A DNA stretch of 64,000 bases from positions 257,424,001 through 257,488,000 of the forward strand of contig OZ024740.1 of assembly GCA_964016885.1 (NCBI GenBank), in the 5' to 3' direction. Below, one piece after another: positions 39,792-63,833 of this stretch (its first letter is position 1; every line of letters starts with the position of its first letter). This DNA is from Eledone cirrhosa (Eukaryota). The position numbers and the translations under genes were made by a program. Under the pieces are notes generated by a model. It made no database searches, was not told the DNA's origin, and saw nothing but the letters and a program-made list of their open reading frames with translations.

Positions 39792-40340
39792 CATACAGAG
39801 TGGTTGCCTCCCCAGCAACAATTAGAAATTTGTTTTGGTGCTCCGAAATGTGTATATGAATGTACGTATTGTATATAATATACTGTATATATATTTTAGA
39901 ATATTTTGAAGGCCGACGTTAGTCACTACCTTAAATTCATAACGAAAGGTATTCTCCCCTCACCCTCTCTCTGTTTTCTTACTACATTTCCACTCATCTA
40001 CTCACTTCCGTTTTCCCTTCGAGTCTTTCTGTGTACAATTGTTGTCGTTCTGACCAGTCATTTGTTTTCTCTCTCTCACGCTTGTTGTTAATATGCTTTC
40101 AGAACTTACGTTCGGCCACTTAGTATTAACTATTTCCCTTTCTTTCGTTTTTTTTTTTTTTTTTTTTCGGTTTATTCGTCCATCATCCGCAGTGTTTCTT
40201 CCCGGATAGTTTTCCTTTTTAGCTGTTAACCCACTGTGGTGAAAGGTCTTCTCTCACTGTACTGTAATTTTTTAATTTATAAATTGAATATGGCAAAGCC
40301 GGCGATTTATCGCTCGTATACAGAAAATTGACTGGCCAGT

Positions 40341-40439
40341 CTGGTGATATGCAAATCTGGCTGATCAGTGAATCTGCTAATATGCAGATCTGGCTGATCA
40401 GCCAGTCTGGTAATATGCAAATCAGGCCGATCAGTCACT
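40341..40439 (+). promoter_or_regulatory. 3 x 33 bp tandem repeat carrying octamer ATGCAAAT motifs upstream of a hammerhead
   Basis: ATGCAAAT at 40349, ATGCAGAT at 40382, ATGCAAAT at 40415; regulatory role is inferred. Confidence 0.45.
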
Positions 40440-40489
40440 GTATATTTTAGAAAATAGCATGTTCTGACAGCTGGCAGGTGAACAGTGAG

Positions 40490-40533
40490 CTGTACTGATG
40501 AAAGGTGATACACAGAAACATTAGTGTCTGCAG
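40490..40533 (+). ncRNA. Type I hammerhead (family Z), stem II weakened
   Basis: CTGTA-CTGATGA-AAGGTGATACACA-GAAACATTAGTGTC-TGCAG; predicted GUC cut after 40528. Confidence 0.75.
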
Positions 40534-41329
40534 TTCTGTTTAGATGCCAACACAAGGATTCATTCTATTGACATGGCTTTAAAAATAAAGGAGATTCCTA
40601 AAACCTCATACGAATAAATAGTCCTGCAGACGACATTTATAAATATAAATATAAATATATATATATATATCTGTGTGTGTATATATATATATATGTGTGT
40701 GTGTGTGTGTATATATACATATATATATATATATATATATATATATATATATATATATATATATATATATATATATATATATATATAAATATACATATAT
40801 ATATATATATATATGTGTGTGTGTGTGTGTGTGTGTGTGTGTGTGTGTGTGTGTGTGTGTGTGTCTGTATGGTGGGGTGGTGCTGTCTTGTTCGAACTTC
40901 AAATGTTTCTTTTGCTCACGATACTCTCAGGAGAATACACGCATACATTGCGAACATAAAAACACACACACTTACTCACTCTAACAATACACACACACAC
41001 ACATACACACACACATATATATATATATATATACATATATAATATATGTATATATATATGTGGATACGTCTGTCAGATATGTCTGTTCAACCGTAATAAC
41101 ACCAATGCAATTCTGCTACCGCGATATTCAAGATTATTATTTCCATTGAAGTCGATAATATCCCATAGGGTTGTGAATAATATCCAGCAGACCATTGAGA
41201 GATATCACAATTGCTATTTCTGTTCTTCTGCCTGATGTCTGCAAGCAATAGCTCTCTGGTAAAAGAATCAATCTACGTGGAATCAATCAACCAATCAATC
41301 AATCTGGTTCTGCTATTACTACTGCAACA

Positions 41330-42008
41330 ATATATATATATATATATATATATATATATATATGTATATATATATATATATATATGTATATATATATATA
41401 TATATATATATATATATATATATATATGTATATATATATATATACATATATATATATATATATATACATATATATATATATATGTATATATATATATATA
41501 TATATATATATGTATATATATATATATATATATATATATATATATATATATATGTATATATATATATATATATATATATATATATATATATATATATATA
41601 TATATATACATATATATATATATATATATATATATATATATATATATACATATATATATATATATATACATATATATATATATATATATATATATATATA
41701 TATACATATATATATATATATATATATATATATATATATACATATATATATATATATATATATATATATATACATATACATATATATATATATATATATA
41801 TATATATATATAGTAATAATAATAAATTAGAATGTTAATATATATTTATATATATATATATATATATATATATTTGCATATATATATATATATATATATG
41901 TATATATATATATATATATATATATATATATATATATATGTGTGTGTGTGTGTGTGTGTGTGTGTGTGTGTGTGTGTATGTGTGTGTGTGTGTGTTTGTG
42001 TGTGTGTA
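41330..42008. repeat. Very long (TA)n array followed by (TG)n
   Basis: Direct reading. Confidence 0.95.
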
Positions 42009-59776: not shown

Positions 59777-61181
59777 CCCTCTTCCTGCTATTTCAAGCGT
59801 TAACCTAATATATTTCTTCCATATACTGTATAGGTTGTTTCTCTTTACCTATTACATACACATATATATATATATACACATATACAAACACCCGTATATA
59901 TATATATATATATATATGAATAGAGGAGCGTTGTGTGAGCATGTGTATTGTTCATTTTCTTGGGCTATACTATCTTCTGAATCTAAAATCGTCGCTTTTC
60001 ATCCCTACTTCACACATCATCATTACAAGTGGCTCCTATCTCGTTAAGAGATCAGGAGGAGTACTTAATTTCACACTTGGGCGTTTTACAATGACCACAG
60101 GTTAGCCACTGTCAGTGTATCTATCTATTTTCAGTGTGCAGTTGCGTTATTGTTGTGTTTAAGTTTGGTTAAGTGTTGTGTTGTATTTTTGTAATTACTG
60201 CATTCTGTTTTTACATGAGATTGTAATCGTAGATTAACCAATGTTTAAAAACGTTTTATGTGTGCGCGCACGCACACACACACACACACACACACACACA
60301 CACACACACACACACACACACACACACACACACACACACACAAATTGAACTCTTTCTGGTTTTGGGTCCGGATCTCTGTGCGCTGGTCTGAAATCCTGCC
60401 AACGTCAACTGTAACCTTTCATTCTTTCACGGTTGATAAATTAGGTACCACTAACGTACTGGGATCGATTCTTCCTCTATATCTCTAACTCATTTCATGC
60501 TCTCTGTTCAGACCGGGAGAGATGGGTTCCACCGCATGTGGCTGAGGCGCTCTCATGATTTCAACAGGAGTTACGGGTAAAGAAACATTCATACCTGAAA
60601 AAACGTTGCGTATATAAAATGCTAAATAAGAACATTTTGAATGTCATAATAATTTAACAGTAAAAATTGTTACAGAATTAAAATCCATGATTGTGTGTGT
60701 ATTTAAGATTGTAATCTCGTGTTGAAAAAGGAATACAGTAATTGCAAATCTGACAACAAAACGCAACACAATTCCATCACCACTGACCGTGGGTAACCTG
60801 TGGCTATTATGAAAAACCCAGAAGTGAAAACAAGTGTGCTTCTTGATCAGTTAGTGAGATAGTGAAAAGCTGTATTGGCAGAGCGGGAAGAAGGGCCGCG
60901 GGAAAAATAAACCATAAAAGATTAATAGCAACAACAATTAAACATGCACACTTGTTTCTCGTAGAATCAGTGATTACAAATACAAACCTCCATATCACCG
61001 AGATAGACAAAAATAATATATACAGCAATCGTATTGGACACAGAGAACAGGTATAACTCGGTCAAATCTACGAATAGAAACAGAAAGAAAATATATCGGA
61101 AGACATGAAGGAAAAATTGGGAAAAGCAGATCGTCAGAACGGACAAAGGAAACAAGATTTCCATTATTTTTACATTGCTGA

Positions 61182-61378
61182 AGGCGGTGGATTGATAGCA
61201 TTTGTAGAACGTCGGGTAATATGCTTTGCGGCATGGAGTTACAACTCTGTAGTTTCTGAGATCAAATCCTGCCGAGGTTAACTTTGCCTTTCATCCTTAC
61301 CGGGTCGATAAAATAAAGTACCAGTAACGCACCGATGTCGATTAAATCGACTTTTCTGTTACCCAAAATTGTTGGACT
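61182..61378 (+). mobile_element. tRNA-SINE copy related to the dominant family, longer 3' part
   Basis: Head, B-box-like GAGATCAAATCC and core. Confidence 0.75.
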
Positions 61379-62883
61379 TTTATTTTAAATAAATATTTTC
61401 CTTTTTTCTTTTCTATTCTCTGCGGTATTTATTTACAGTCCTTTTCTTTCTGCGTTTAAATCCCACAAAGTTTGACTTTCATTTCAACGTTCGGAGGACG
61501 CTAAAAAAAAATACAAGTGAAGTACTGAAGTCGATATAATCAACTTCTCGCTTCATCTACAAATGATTGGCCTTGTGACAAAATTAGAAACCATCTGTTA
61601 ATGTTCTCTTTTTATGCCTGTATGGTTTGGGCTAGGTCATTTGGTTTGTAGGGACCCAAACGTACTTCGAATTCAAACTTATTATTCCTTAGTAAATTAT
61701 GTCTCTATACTGATACAAAAGCAGCGCGGGGACACCCAAATCTGAGTTCCAATCTCGTCACGGTCAACGTTGTTTTTTATCCTTTCCAAGTCGATATAAT
61801 AGCAGTGTGGTCGATAATTGATCCATATATATCACTGCTTTCTCTCACCCTCTCTATGTCTTTCTCTCTCTTGAACTATCTATCTACCTGTCTCACTGCT
61901 TTCTCTCTTTCTACAACAAACAAGCAAGAAGAAGAAGAAATCGGTTATGTTCTAACCAAGAGAGGAAAGGGGCTCCACCAGGTTTAAGTGCACAATATTG
62001 TTATGCGTATGTCACTAGTTCAGGTAAAATTCGCATTTCAAACATCGTACGGCCTTGGTTTACAGAGTTCAGCTTTTCAGATAAAACTGATTTTTTTTAC
62101 TCTTTTCACACAAAACTAATTTCTACAGTCGTGACAGGTATTTCCCATGTAGGTATTTTTCTTGCCAACGACTAACAATGACATTTTGTAATAGCATTCT
62201 CTTTCGTTAATTCTTCATTCTCTTCACAGCTGTCTCTTATCTCAGCTTGCTTTCTAAATTTGATGGCTTCCTTCAAGACAGAAAACCGCCATTTTGTATG
62301 TTTTATTCATATTTAATGTCCTTATACAGTTTTTTTCTATACACATTTCAAAACATTCTAGAGTGGGTATTTTATAATAATTTTCTAGTTACAGATTTCA
62401 ACCTGACTATCAGAAATGAATATACACTCTGTGTTGGGGTTCAAGGGTTATAGTCTAAGTTCAATAAATAGTTTGACTAATTATTGTGCGTCCAGTTAGA
62501 TATATTTGAACTATGACATGTTAACTGATTAATGACAATTTTCTTATGTTTACCTTTAATTCTATTTTAAATATACATTTAAAGAGTCTAAAATATTTCT
62601 TAAACTTTTCTACCGTTTGTCTACGTTGTGCTCTCGAAGTAATTAAATTGTTAATTCTTTGTAAGTCTTCCTATTTCTCTCTCTCTCTCTCTCTCTCTCT
62701 CTCTCTCTCTCTCTCTCTCTCTCTCTCTCTCTCTCTCTCTCTTATATATATATATGTGCGCGCACGCGGGCGCACGCGTGTAGTTGTGTGTGTAAAAGGT
62801 AGACGGAAGAAATGTAGTTCTAATATCAATAATAATATTTGATTAGAATATGTGAGTAGAATAATCCCGCCATTCTTACAGAA

Positions 62884-62928
62884 CGGCAGACACTAATGTT
62901 TCTGGTTGATCACCCTTCATCAGTACCG
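62884..62928 (-). ncRNA. Type I hammerhead (family Z) with compensatory stem I change
   Basis: Minus: CGGTA-CTGATGA-AGGGTGATCAACCA-GAAACATTAGTGTC-TGCCG. Confidence 0.82.
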
Positions 62929-63833
62929 TATAATGGTTACCTGCCAACTGTCAGAGTTAATGAAGATATATGATATTTTCTCGGAATATAGAGTGACTGA
63001 TCGGCTTGATTTGCATATTAGCAGACTGCTTGATCAGTCAGATCTGCATGTTAGCAGACCCACTATTTAGACAATTTTCACATCAGCAGATAGGCCAGTC
63101 AGTTTCATGTATATGAGCGATTAGTAGTCGGGTTTGCCATAATCCAATAACTAACAAATAGTTTTATCGCTCTATGTCGCTGAATACAAGAAATGTAAAT
63201 CTGAGATTTTCGAATATTAATATTAATATTCGATTCGTTTGCAATTATGCAAAGAAGCTCTTTAGGCCATGTGAGTGTTTGCCATTCTGTTTATATGGCA
63301 ACACAAGAACAAGAATGATAGGATCATTCTACTCACATGGCTTAAAGAGGCATACTTGTAAATGAAACGAATATTATTTTTAACTTACGTTTCTTGTATT
63401 CAGCCATGCAGAGCGATAAAACTATTTGTTATATATATATATATATATATATATATATATATATATATATATATATATATATATACTTGTATGTATGTGC
63501 GTGTGTATTGTTATATTTGTGGAGGGTCATATTGTTATAATATTGACAGGAATATATAATAAAGCACACTTACTCTTTGGTATGGATTGGTTTTCGCTTC
63601 CGTATATTTTATATCCCCATAGTTAATTTAGCTGGCAATCAATGTTTACCATTGATTGACCACCAGTTAAAATATAGATATAAATATATATATATATATA
63701 TATATAGACTCTCACAGTACTTTATTTACACACATGTGACATCATCAGTGATACACTTATGCTTCCACCCGTTGTATTGTAATGTCTACTTAGAATAAGT
63801 AAACATTACAATACAAGAACAGGTAGCATAGTA

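Follow-up and report, generated by a model that had tools for sequence, protein, structure and literature searches.

A high-copy, hammerhead-bearing non-coding repeat in Eledone cirrhosa and its probable mobilisation by a Penelope-like element

A 64,000-nucleotide stretch of the genome of Eledone cirrhosa (contig OZ024740.1, positions 257,424,001 to 257,488,000; hereafter the window, in whose own numbering all coordinates are given) contains several copies of a non-coding repeat unit that carries a hammerhead ribozyme motif. A sequence-only reading of the range 40285..63430 had described three such hammerheads and proposed that their fold is under selection and that the unit occurs in circularly permuted form. 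Here we describe the insertions in detail and argue that this high-copy unit of ~380-430 bases was probably copied into (TA)n by the reverse transcriptase/endonuclease of a Penelope-like element (PLE) acting in trans. This reading is based on the partial tandems, the inverted arms and the one-sided 30-40-bp tail, which together form the published signature of PLE insertions.

Self-comparison of the window gives the order of the unit as module R with the 33-bp repeats, module H with the ribozyme hairpin, the 3' segment T, and a tail. Module R spans ~187 nt, T ends in CAGATTACAT and the tail is 36-40 nt long. The length of the unit is 381 nt between equivalent end sites in copy C, which has deletions, and ~430 nt when summed from the modules. 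The unit of 380-430 nt is non-coding: in copies A-C no frame of at least 120 amino acids covers R, H or the tandem junction. The 2-kb windows over the copies have 25-35% GC, a value that describes these windows and not the unit itself. The hammerheads were located with the pattern CTGATGA-N8-36-GAAACATTAGTGTC, which matches three times in the 64-kb window and in 0 of 100 shuffles. Two further copies, D (35027-35770) and E (31618-32234), lie outside the range first described.

40276..40462, plus strand: copy A, module R, with three 33-bp repeats at 40340-40437
40490..40533, plus strand: copy A, type I hammerhead motif; core 40495-40528 (exact pattern); predicted cut after the GTC ending at 40528; stem II broken by two changes
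40529..40636, plus strand: copy A, module T; second half diverged; ends near the tail-less site against an AT microsatellite
47976..48011, minus strand: copy B, tail of 36 nt, then (TA)n at 47928-47975
48012..48150, minus strand: copy B, module T, with CAGATTACAT as its fixed end
48140..48236, minus strand: copy B, module H, containing the hammerhead 48189-48146
48189-48146, minus strand: copy B, type I hammerhead motif; core 48184-48151 (exact pattern); predicted cut after 48151; A·A mismatch closing stem II (GGGT/ACCC)
48245..48424, plus strand: copy B, inverted arm, module R, 87% to R of copy A
48425..48479, plus strand: inverted arm of copy B, final 55 nt of T (4 mismatches to 48066-48012), linked to R with H deleted; tail-less end followed by (TA)n at 48478-48543
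62807..62883, minus strand: copy C, downstream T with deletions; tail-less site 62812 plus at most 5 nt; (TA)n not directly adjoining
62884..62928, minus strand: copy C, type I hammerhead motif; core 62923-62889 (exact pattern); compensatory stem I; predicted cut after 62889; one stem II pair broken
62970..63144, minus strand: copy C, module R
63150..63276, minus strand: copy C, long arm, with the tail preceded by the second half of T and continuous into R; tandem junction at ~63150
63274..63430, plus strand: copy C, inverted arm; T with a tail of 40 nt, followed by (TA)n at 63430-63485; begins 0-6 nt ahead of the predicted cut
35027..35112, minus strand: copy D (ribozyme-less), inverted arm made of the second half of T (93-94% to copy B), with (TA)n adjoining the tail-less site
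35106..35770, plus strand: copy D, long arm; T at 35106-35199 and 35700-35730; 40-nt tail at 35731-35770, then (TA)n
31618..31864, minus strand: copy E, an old or distant relative that retains, at the expected spacing, the end of R and the middle of T; second T fragment at 32175-32227 on the same strand

Copy B consists of two head-to-head arms, H-T-tail on the minus strand and R plus the end of T on the plus strand. The sequence-only reading had taken its repeat block as inverted. The block at 48245-48424 (+) does correspond to 40276-40460 (+) at 87%, opposite to its minus-strand ribozyme, but it belongs to an inverted second arm with a 3' end of its own and did not flip in place. A small hairpin at the R/H boundary (48205-48240, 48405-48424 and 62950-62980) is present at both breakpoints of copy B. 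Copy C is composed of a long minus-strand arm (half of T, tail, R, H and a shortened T) joined to a plus-strand arm of T and tail. Here, the segment that lies downstream of the ribozyme at 47983-48145 had been described as joined upstream of the 33-bp repeats. This junction exists: 63276-63167 (-) matches 48099-47986 (-) at 84% and runs continuously into the repeats. It does not comprise the whole segment, however, as its first 46 nt are found in the separate, oppositely oriented arm (63280-63430 +), and a shortened segment still follows the ribozyme (62883-62812). What was seen as a permuted unit is thus a partial tandem rather than a plain permutation. In copy D, T is split by a later SINE-like (short interspersed nuclear element-like) insert with a 177-bp period. 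The ribozyme region of copy E reaches a score also attained by 159 of 1000 shuffles and is not above chance on its own. At ~31803-31830 in this copy, a stretch matching the R/H-boundary hairpin reads as CTGATGA plus hairpin on the opposite strand; without a GAAA box, an antisense hammerhead was rejected.

The ends of these insertions follow a simple rule. In all three two-armed insertions (B, C and D) the arms are head to head, inverted and 5'-truncated, and one arm is tailed (36, 40 and 40 nt, respectively) while the other stops at the tail-less site, within 5 nt of it in C. The 3' ends of the arms thus fall on one or the other of two fixed points, 36-40 nt from each other, and only the 5' ends vary. 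An AT microsatellite adjoins six of the seven ends, that of copy A included, in a window that is itself rich in microsatellites (104 rows). The inner junctions are different in each copy and show short overlaps, CATG in D and ACT in C. Differences between the arms amount to 4/55 positions in B, 7/85 in D and 13/100 in C. Because its arms differ more than those of B, copy C is taken to be the older insertion, from an older subfamily. The plus arm of C begins 0-6 nt ahead of the predicted cut, and these few letters lean towards an uncut template.

The earlier reading had proposed a circular or tandem RNA template, to be doubted if all copies shared fixed linear ends. Such ends are indeed seen on the 3' side, at the two points described, while the 5' ends are variable. 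A template longer than the unit is backed by the junction at ~63150 and by one contig from a public sequencing run discussed below, whereas the fixed 3' ends run counter to free permutation. They favour Penelope-type priming instead.

Several published observations on PLEs describe the same anatomy. Their insertions include partial tandems, an inverted 5'-truncated copy and a 30-40-bp tail that is often one-ended, and certain clades target (TA)n (PMC8557442). Rotifer Penelopes share this architecture (PMC3846280): most of them are head to head, and their inverted junctions show palindromes or overlaps. In vitro, an anole PLE protein cuts AT-rich DNA on both strands, extends each of them and uses two internal start sites on the RNA, which bound the tail; the hammerhead of this element depends on the protein for cleavage and is not needed for insertion (PMC11167929). 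Non-LTR retrozymes have been proposed to derive from the pseudo-long terminal repeats (pLTRs) of PLEs in a 2026 preprint (10.64898/2026.07.22.740005). The Eledone insertions show each of the architectural traits: partial tandem, inverted truncated arm, tail at one end and AT target.

In the mechanism that we propose, an RNA longer than the unit would be transcribed from it, either as a tandem transcript or as a circle. The PLE enzyme would nick both strands of AT-rich DNA, and either of the two fixed internal sites at the borders of the tail would serve as the start of reverse transcription. From each flank a cDNA could then extend inward until hairpins or microhomologies made it stop or jump; head-to-head joining of the two would leave variable 5' ends and fixed 3' ends. 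After insertion the genomic copies would decay.

How well preserved is the ribozyme itself? The core consensus C3 U4 G5 A6 N7 G8 A9, G12 A13 A14, A15.1-U16.1 and H17, as given in PMC3088659, is present in copies A, B and C alike, with all 11 fixed core letters and the GUC. The topology is that of type I, with helix I open and helices II and III closed by loops. Across the three copies 91.7% of the cells pair in helix I, 100% in helix III and 75% in helix II. The latter is imperfect, with 3 of 12 cells broken (two pairs in A, one in C), and is intact only in B. The pair 10.1-11.1 beside the core does not form and is A·A in all three copies; an alternative alignment of the helix II base has a bulged A9.1, a G-C pair and an extra A preceding the GAAA. 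Perreault et al. discarded matches mispaired at 10.1-11.1, although they also describe a U·U variant from nature (PMC3088659); U·U likewise occupies this position in axolotl HHR_Amex2 (PMC7229834). No A·A variant occurs in the parts of these two papers against which the motif was compared.

Rfam reports no hammerhead family above the gathering threshold, and up to E=10 none is among its 92 matches in 39.5-64 kb. A model built from copies A-C finds no fourth member in the window; its next matches (23.1 and 20.5 bits) belong to another family at 8.3/8.7 kb. Scans with the exact pattern found no locus in either metagenome or viral contigs, and a single locus in prokaryote genomes was set aside as chance, its flanks lacking a matching stem I.

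The letters of stem I are as first described, CTGTA/TGCAG in copies A (40490-40533 +) and B (48189-48146 -) and CGGTA/TGCCG in copy C (62928-62884 -). One position further out, copies A and B pair G·U where C has A-U. In agreement with the earlier description, core and helix III do not differ among the three copies: 21/21 columns are invariant there, as opposed to 123/172 in the repeat block (Fisher p=0.0014 with a post hoc choice of columns). Selection on the hammerhead motif is supported, chiefly by this invariance. The paired change in stem I, from which selection on the fold had been deduced, contributes less. The observed values are reached in 184/500 shuffles, although in all six slid controls the cells pair far below the observed level. 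In simulations at the 25% divergence of B and C, at least one compensatory pair among 6 bp arises in 14% of the trials, and in 1.9% with all six pairs intact. A single compensatory pair in three copies, next to a broken stem II, is weak proof of selection on the fold. It is best read as a trait that separates source subfamilies, since the inverted arm of copy C also carries the C-type letter in the 3' strand of its stem I (TGCCA).

Public sequencing data extend this picture beyond the window. Four of the 13 listed runs were aligned to copy B at 80% likeness, which placed on it 8042 contigs of X1, 3 of X4, 24 of X5 and 46,853 reads of X11. Of the 10 data sets in which the sequence occurs, six (X2 and X3 aside) had shares under 0.2, and X5 represents these six in the alignment; no RNA data set is among the 10, which has no bearing on expression. 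X1 and X11 share an organism label, X1 being possibly the sample behind the window, and X5 has a different label. The repeat family is high-copy. From the mapping tables we considered the best 40 of 126 variants, 15 of 188 joints and 20 of 775 loose ends. None of these 40 variants falls in the core or the five pairs of stem I; variation in the reads concerns loop II (48172) and a G·U-to-A-U change at 48190 in 2427/18,835 X11 reads. The compensatory change at 48188 is likewise absent from the 40, and the three A>C places of X1 lie elsewhere; C-type copies are possibly under-represented when mapping onto copy B at this likeness. Read-start peaks at 48133/48136 in X11 were considered as ribozyme ends and rejected: X11 is a restriction-site-associated DNA (RAD-seq) library, GCATGC, the SphI site, lies at 48132, and the cut is predicted after 48151.

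Among the 20 loose ends, 37 X1 contigs and one X4 contig pass at 48007-48008 into an AT repeat, which is the tail-less end. The joint 48236/48407, one of the 15 considered, is supported by 5260 reads with 41 starts and shows R collinear with H in other copies, indicating that the arrangement of copy B is not the usual one. In one X5 contig, a tail-like loose end directly precedes R, and its first 14 letters are those of the copy D tail. This contig appears to be an independent case, in a second organism, of the tail-to-R junction of copy C. As in both cases the tail is followed by R and not by an open reading frame (ORF), the unit would seem to close on itself.

Some observations weigh against a PLE as the driving force. 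The window contains no autonomous PLE according to a Pfam scan of 25/60 frames of at least 120 amino acids (microsatellite and overlapping frames excluded), nor a GIY-YIG motif according to a six-frame motif scan. Copy A shows no inverted arm, the tail-less end of copy C lies ~55 nt from the nearest short TA run, and target-site duplications are unreadable within (TA)n. Moreover, no tail-to-R joint is found among the best 15 of 188.

Could the unit do without such priming and spread as a classical non-LTR retrozyme? Cleaved monomers of ~430 nt would then be ligated into circles as the obligatory template, whose rolling reverse transcription would produce permuted or multimeric copies. A copy C arm that exceeds the unit length of 381 nt, the tail-to-R junction in a second organism and the invariant ribozyme core would all suit this route, and in size and low GC the unit is close to animal retrozymes for which circles were demonstrated, namely in coral, mussel and axolotl (PMC7229834). 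We nevertheless consider it quite unlikely, because no copy in the window has two tandem ribozymes, the 3' ends are fixed instead of permuted, and the predicted monomer fold hides the core while stem II opens with A·A. In Xenopus only 1/9 dimers tested was cleaved (10.64898/2026.07.22.740005). The junction in copy C cannot separate a circle from a linear tandem transcript, because a circle made by a hammerhead has no sequence seam. A circle is compatible with PLE mobilisation as a sub-step, and the idea is not new, having been shown for retrozymes and proposed for PLEs in 2014 (PMC4209133).

Alternatively, the pieces might be 5'-truncated stumps, that is pLTR remnants, of an autonomous PLE, with no independent short unit behind them. 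PLE insertions are mostly 5'-truncated, pairs of minimal hammerheads on opposite strands 100-700 bp apart are known (PMC4209133), and the PLE tail is the sequence that follows the pLTR (PMC11167929, PMC3846280). The succession of tail and R, in place of tail and ORF, in copy C and the X5 contig speaks against this, and together with the lack of longer frames over R, H or the tandem junction it makes the proposal very unlikely. That the family is a miniature inverted-repeat transposable element (MITE)-like DNA transposon or a satellite, its inverted ends being terminal inverted repeats and its hammerhead a passenger or a chance likeness, is barely conceivable, for although every two-armed insertion is flanked by inverted repeats within TA and Rfam lists no hammerhead, the two ends of one insertion are unequal by the 36-40-nt tail, which largely refutes it, arm length and centre vary from copy to copy, and the conserved core letters with GUC recur in 3/3 copies while 0/100 shuffles match.

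In the predicted monomer fold the core is paired with helix III and its loop (probability 0.98-0.998), and the hammerhead fold comes at a penalty of 6.2-12.7 kcal/mol relative to this alternative. The invariant UUAG loop of helix III is one of only 4/256 tetraloops that could pair with the core in this way. One may speculate on a Penelope-dependent 'SINE', in which each insertion would represent two separately primed cDNAs, one per reverse-transcription start site, and in which the hammerhead, self-inhibited by the conserved core/UUAG helix, would be switched on by binding of the PLE protein and release a circular RNA of ~430 nt. We regard this full scenario as unlikely. If true, the insertions would be an in-genome read-out of two-site initiation, which has so far been shown only in vitro. 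The A·A closure and the predicted core-hiding helix offer a handle for assaying a protein-assisted hammerhead.

The window holds further repeats with hammerhead-like features. At 7877-9077 a 425-bp unit is repeated 2.8 times in tandem, and hammerhead motifs lie at 8331 and 8756 (+), the first with a damaged core; both have U·U at the base of helix II and a palindromic helix III, and the unit is a closer fit to the retrozyme definition than the R-H-T family. A third hammerhead family at 42478-42908 has a 329-bp unit in ~1.3 tandem copies between TA runs, with its hammerhead at 42701-42742 (+), and a relative with an inverted arm lies at 36507-36791. Adjoining copy B, 48545-49703 comprises 2.3 tandem copies of a 510-516-bp unit, 96-98% identical and again between TA runs; on its minus strand CTGATGA is followed by a hairpin, with no GAAA box.

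Other residents are remnants of mobile elements. A broken LINE-like (long interspersed nuclear element-like) retrotransposon at 51481-53720 (+), which ends near an AG microsatellite, retains endonuclease-like and reverse-transcriptase pieces (RVT_1, E=1.7e-07). Its reverse transcriptase at 52706-53308 was considered as the PLE partner and rejected, as its motifs point to an endonuclease-bearing LINE remnant. Fragments of a PIF1-type helicase at 57625-59119 (-) are Helitron-like, and 11287-11721 (+) holds a DDE_1 transposase fragment. A dispersed SINE-like repeat occurs at 35201-35711, 39672-39749, 61255-61332 and 32000-32090, with three head-to-tail copies within copy D. The region 22000-31000 is GC-richer (46-53%), with a strong T-over-A skew and degenerate 3-, 18-, 45- and 57-bp repeats. 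It contains many broken frames of 120-240 amino acids and no Pfam match among the frames scanned.

As a family, the repeat is ordinary: PLE-linked, hammerhead-bearing non-coding repeats have been described across animals. We found no description of this Eledone family in the literature searched, though a repeat database such as Repbase or Dfam, or a supplement, may list it. Its value is that of a test case, in that three insertions in one window, each with a tailed and a tail-less arm, fit the two start sites known from in vitro work. Retrozyme-type units are thereby linked to PLE integration by the anatomy of their insertions, and not by co-occurrence.

How does the unit compare with the systems already known? 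With the minimal hammerheads of PLEs (Cervera and de la Pena 2014, PMC4209133) it shares the type I topology, a helix I of 5-6 bp and an unpaired base after A9, which in the intact Eledone copy is likewise followed by a G-C pair. Helix II has 7-8 bp in those motifs and 4 bp plus an extra A before the GAAA in Eledone. Helix III of the Eledone motif has 3 bp and a UUAG loop that is not palindromic; unlike the minimal PLE hammerheads, it would not allow dimer folding mediated by a palindrome. Axolotl HHR_Amex2 (PMC7229834) is alike in its helix III tetraloop and in a mismatch at the helix II base, U·U there and A·A here.

Metazoan non-LTR retrozymes (Cervera and de la Pena 2020, PMC7229834; Li, Clavereau and Pollet 2026, 10.64898/2026.07.22.740005) are similar in being non-coding, of 380-430 nt, low in GC and high in copy number, with one type I hammerhead per unit. 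The Eledone unit falls within the published bounds of 150-450 nt and GC under 45%, its GC being taken from the 2-kb windows. It differs in the strong inverted-arm architecture and in that its cleavage is predicted and its circles are hypothetical. The 'active retrozyme' of Li et al. has two consecutive ribozymes, an arrangement that the Eledone unit lacks within the window; the tail-to-R junction would imply ribozyme arrays or circles elsewhere, although none of the pieces listed from the public runs covers a complete unit. PLE insertions with pLTRs (Craig et al. 2021, PMC8557442; Arkhipova et al. 2013, PMC3846280; Frangieh et al. 2024, PMC11167929) share the partial tandem, the head-to-head arms and the one-ended tail, as well as a hammerhead inside the repeat, AT-rich or (TA)n targets and inverted junctions with short overlaps. 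The Eledone unit departs from these in carrying no reverse-transcriptase/GIY-YIG frame and in a tail that leads into the next R, not into an ORF. Overall, the comparison suggests that we are likely dealing with a new family of a known type, a non-autonomous PLE derivative or non-LTR retrozyme.

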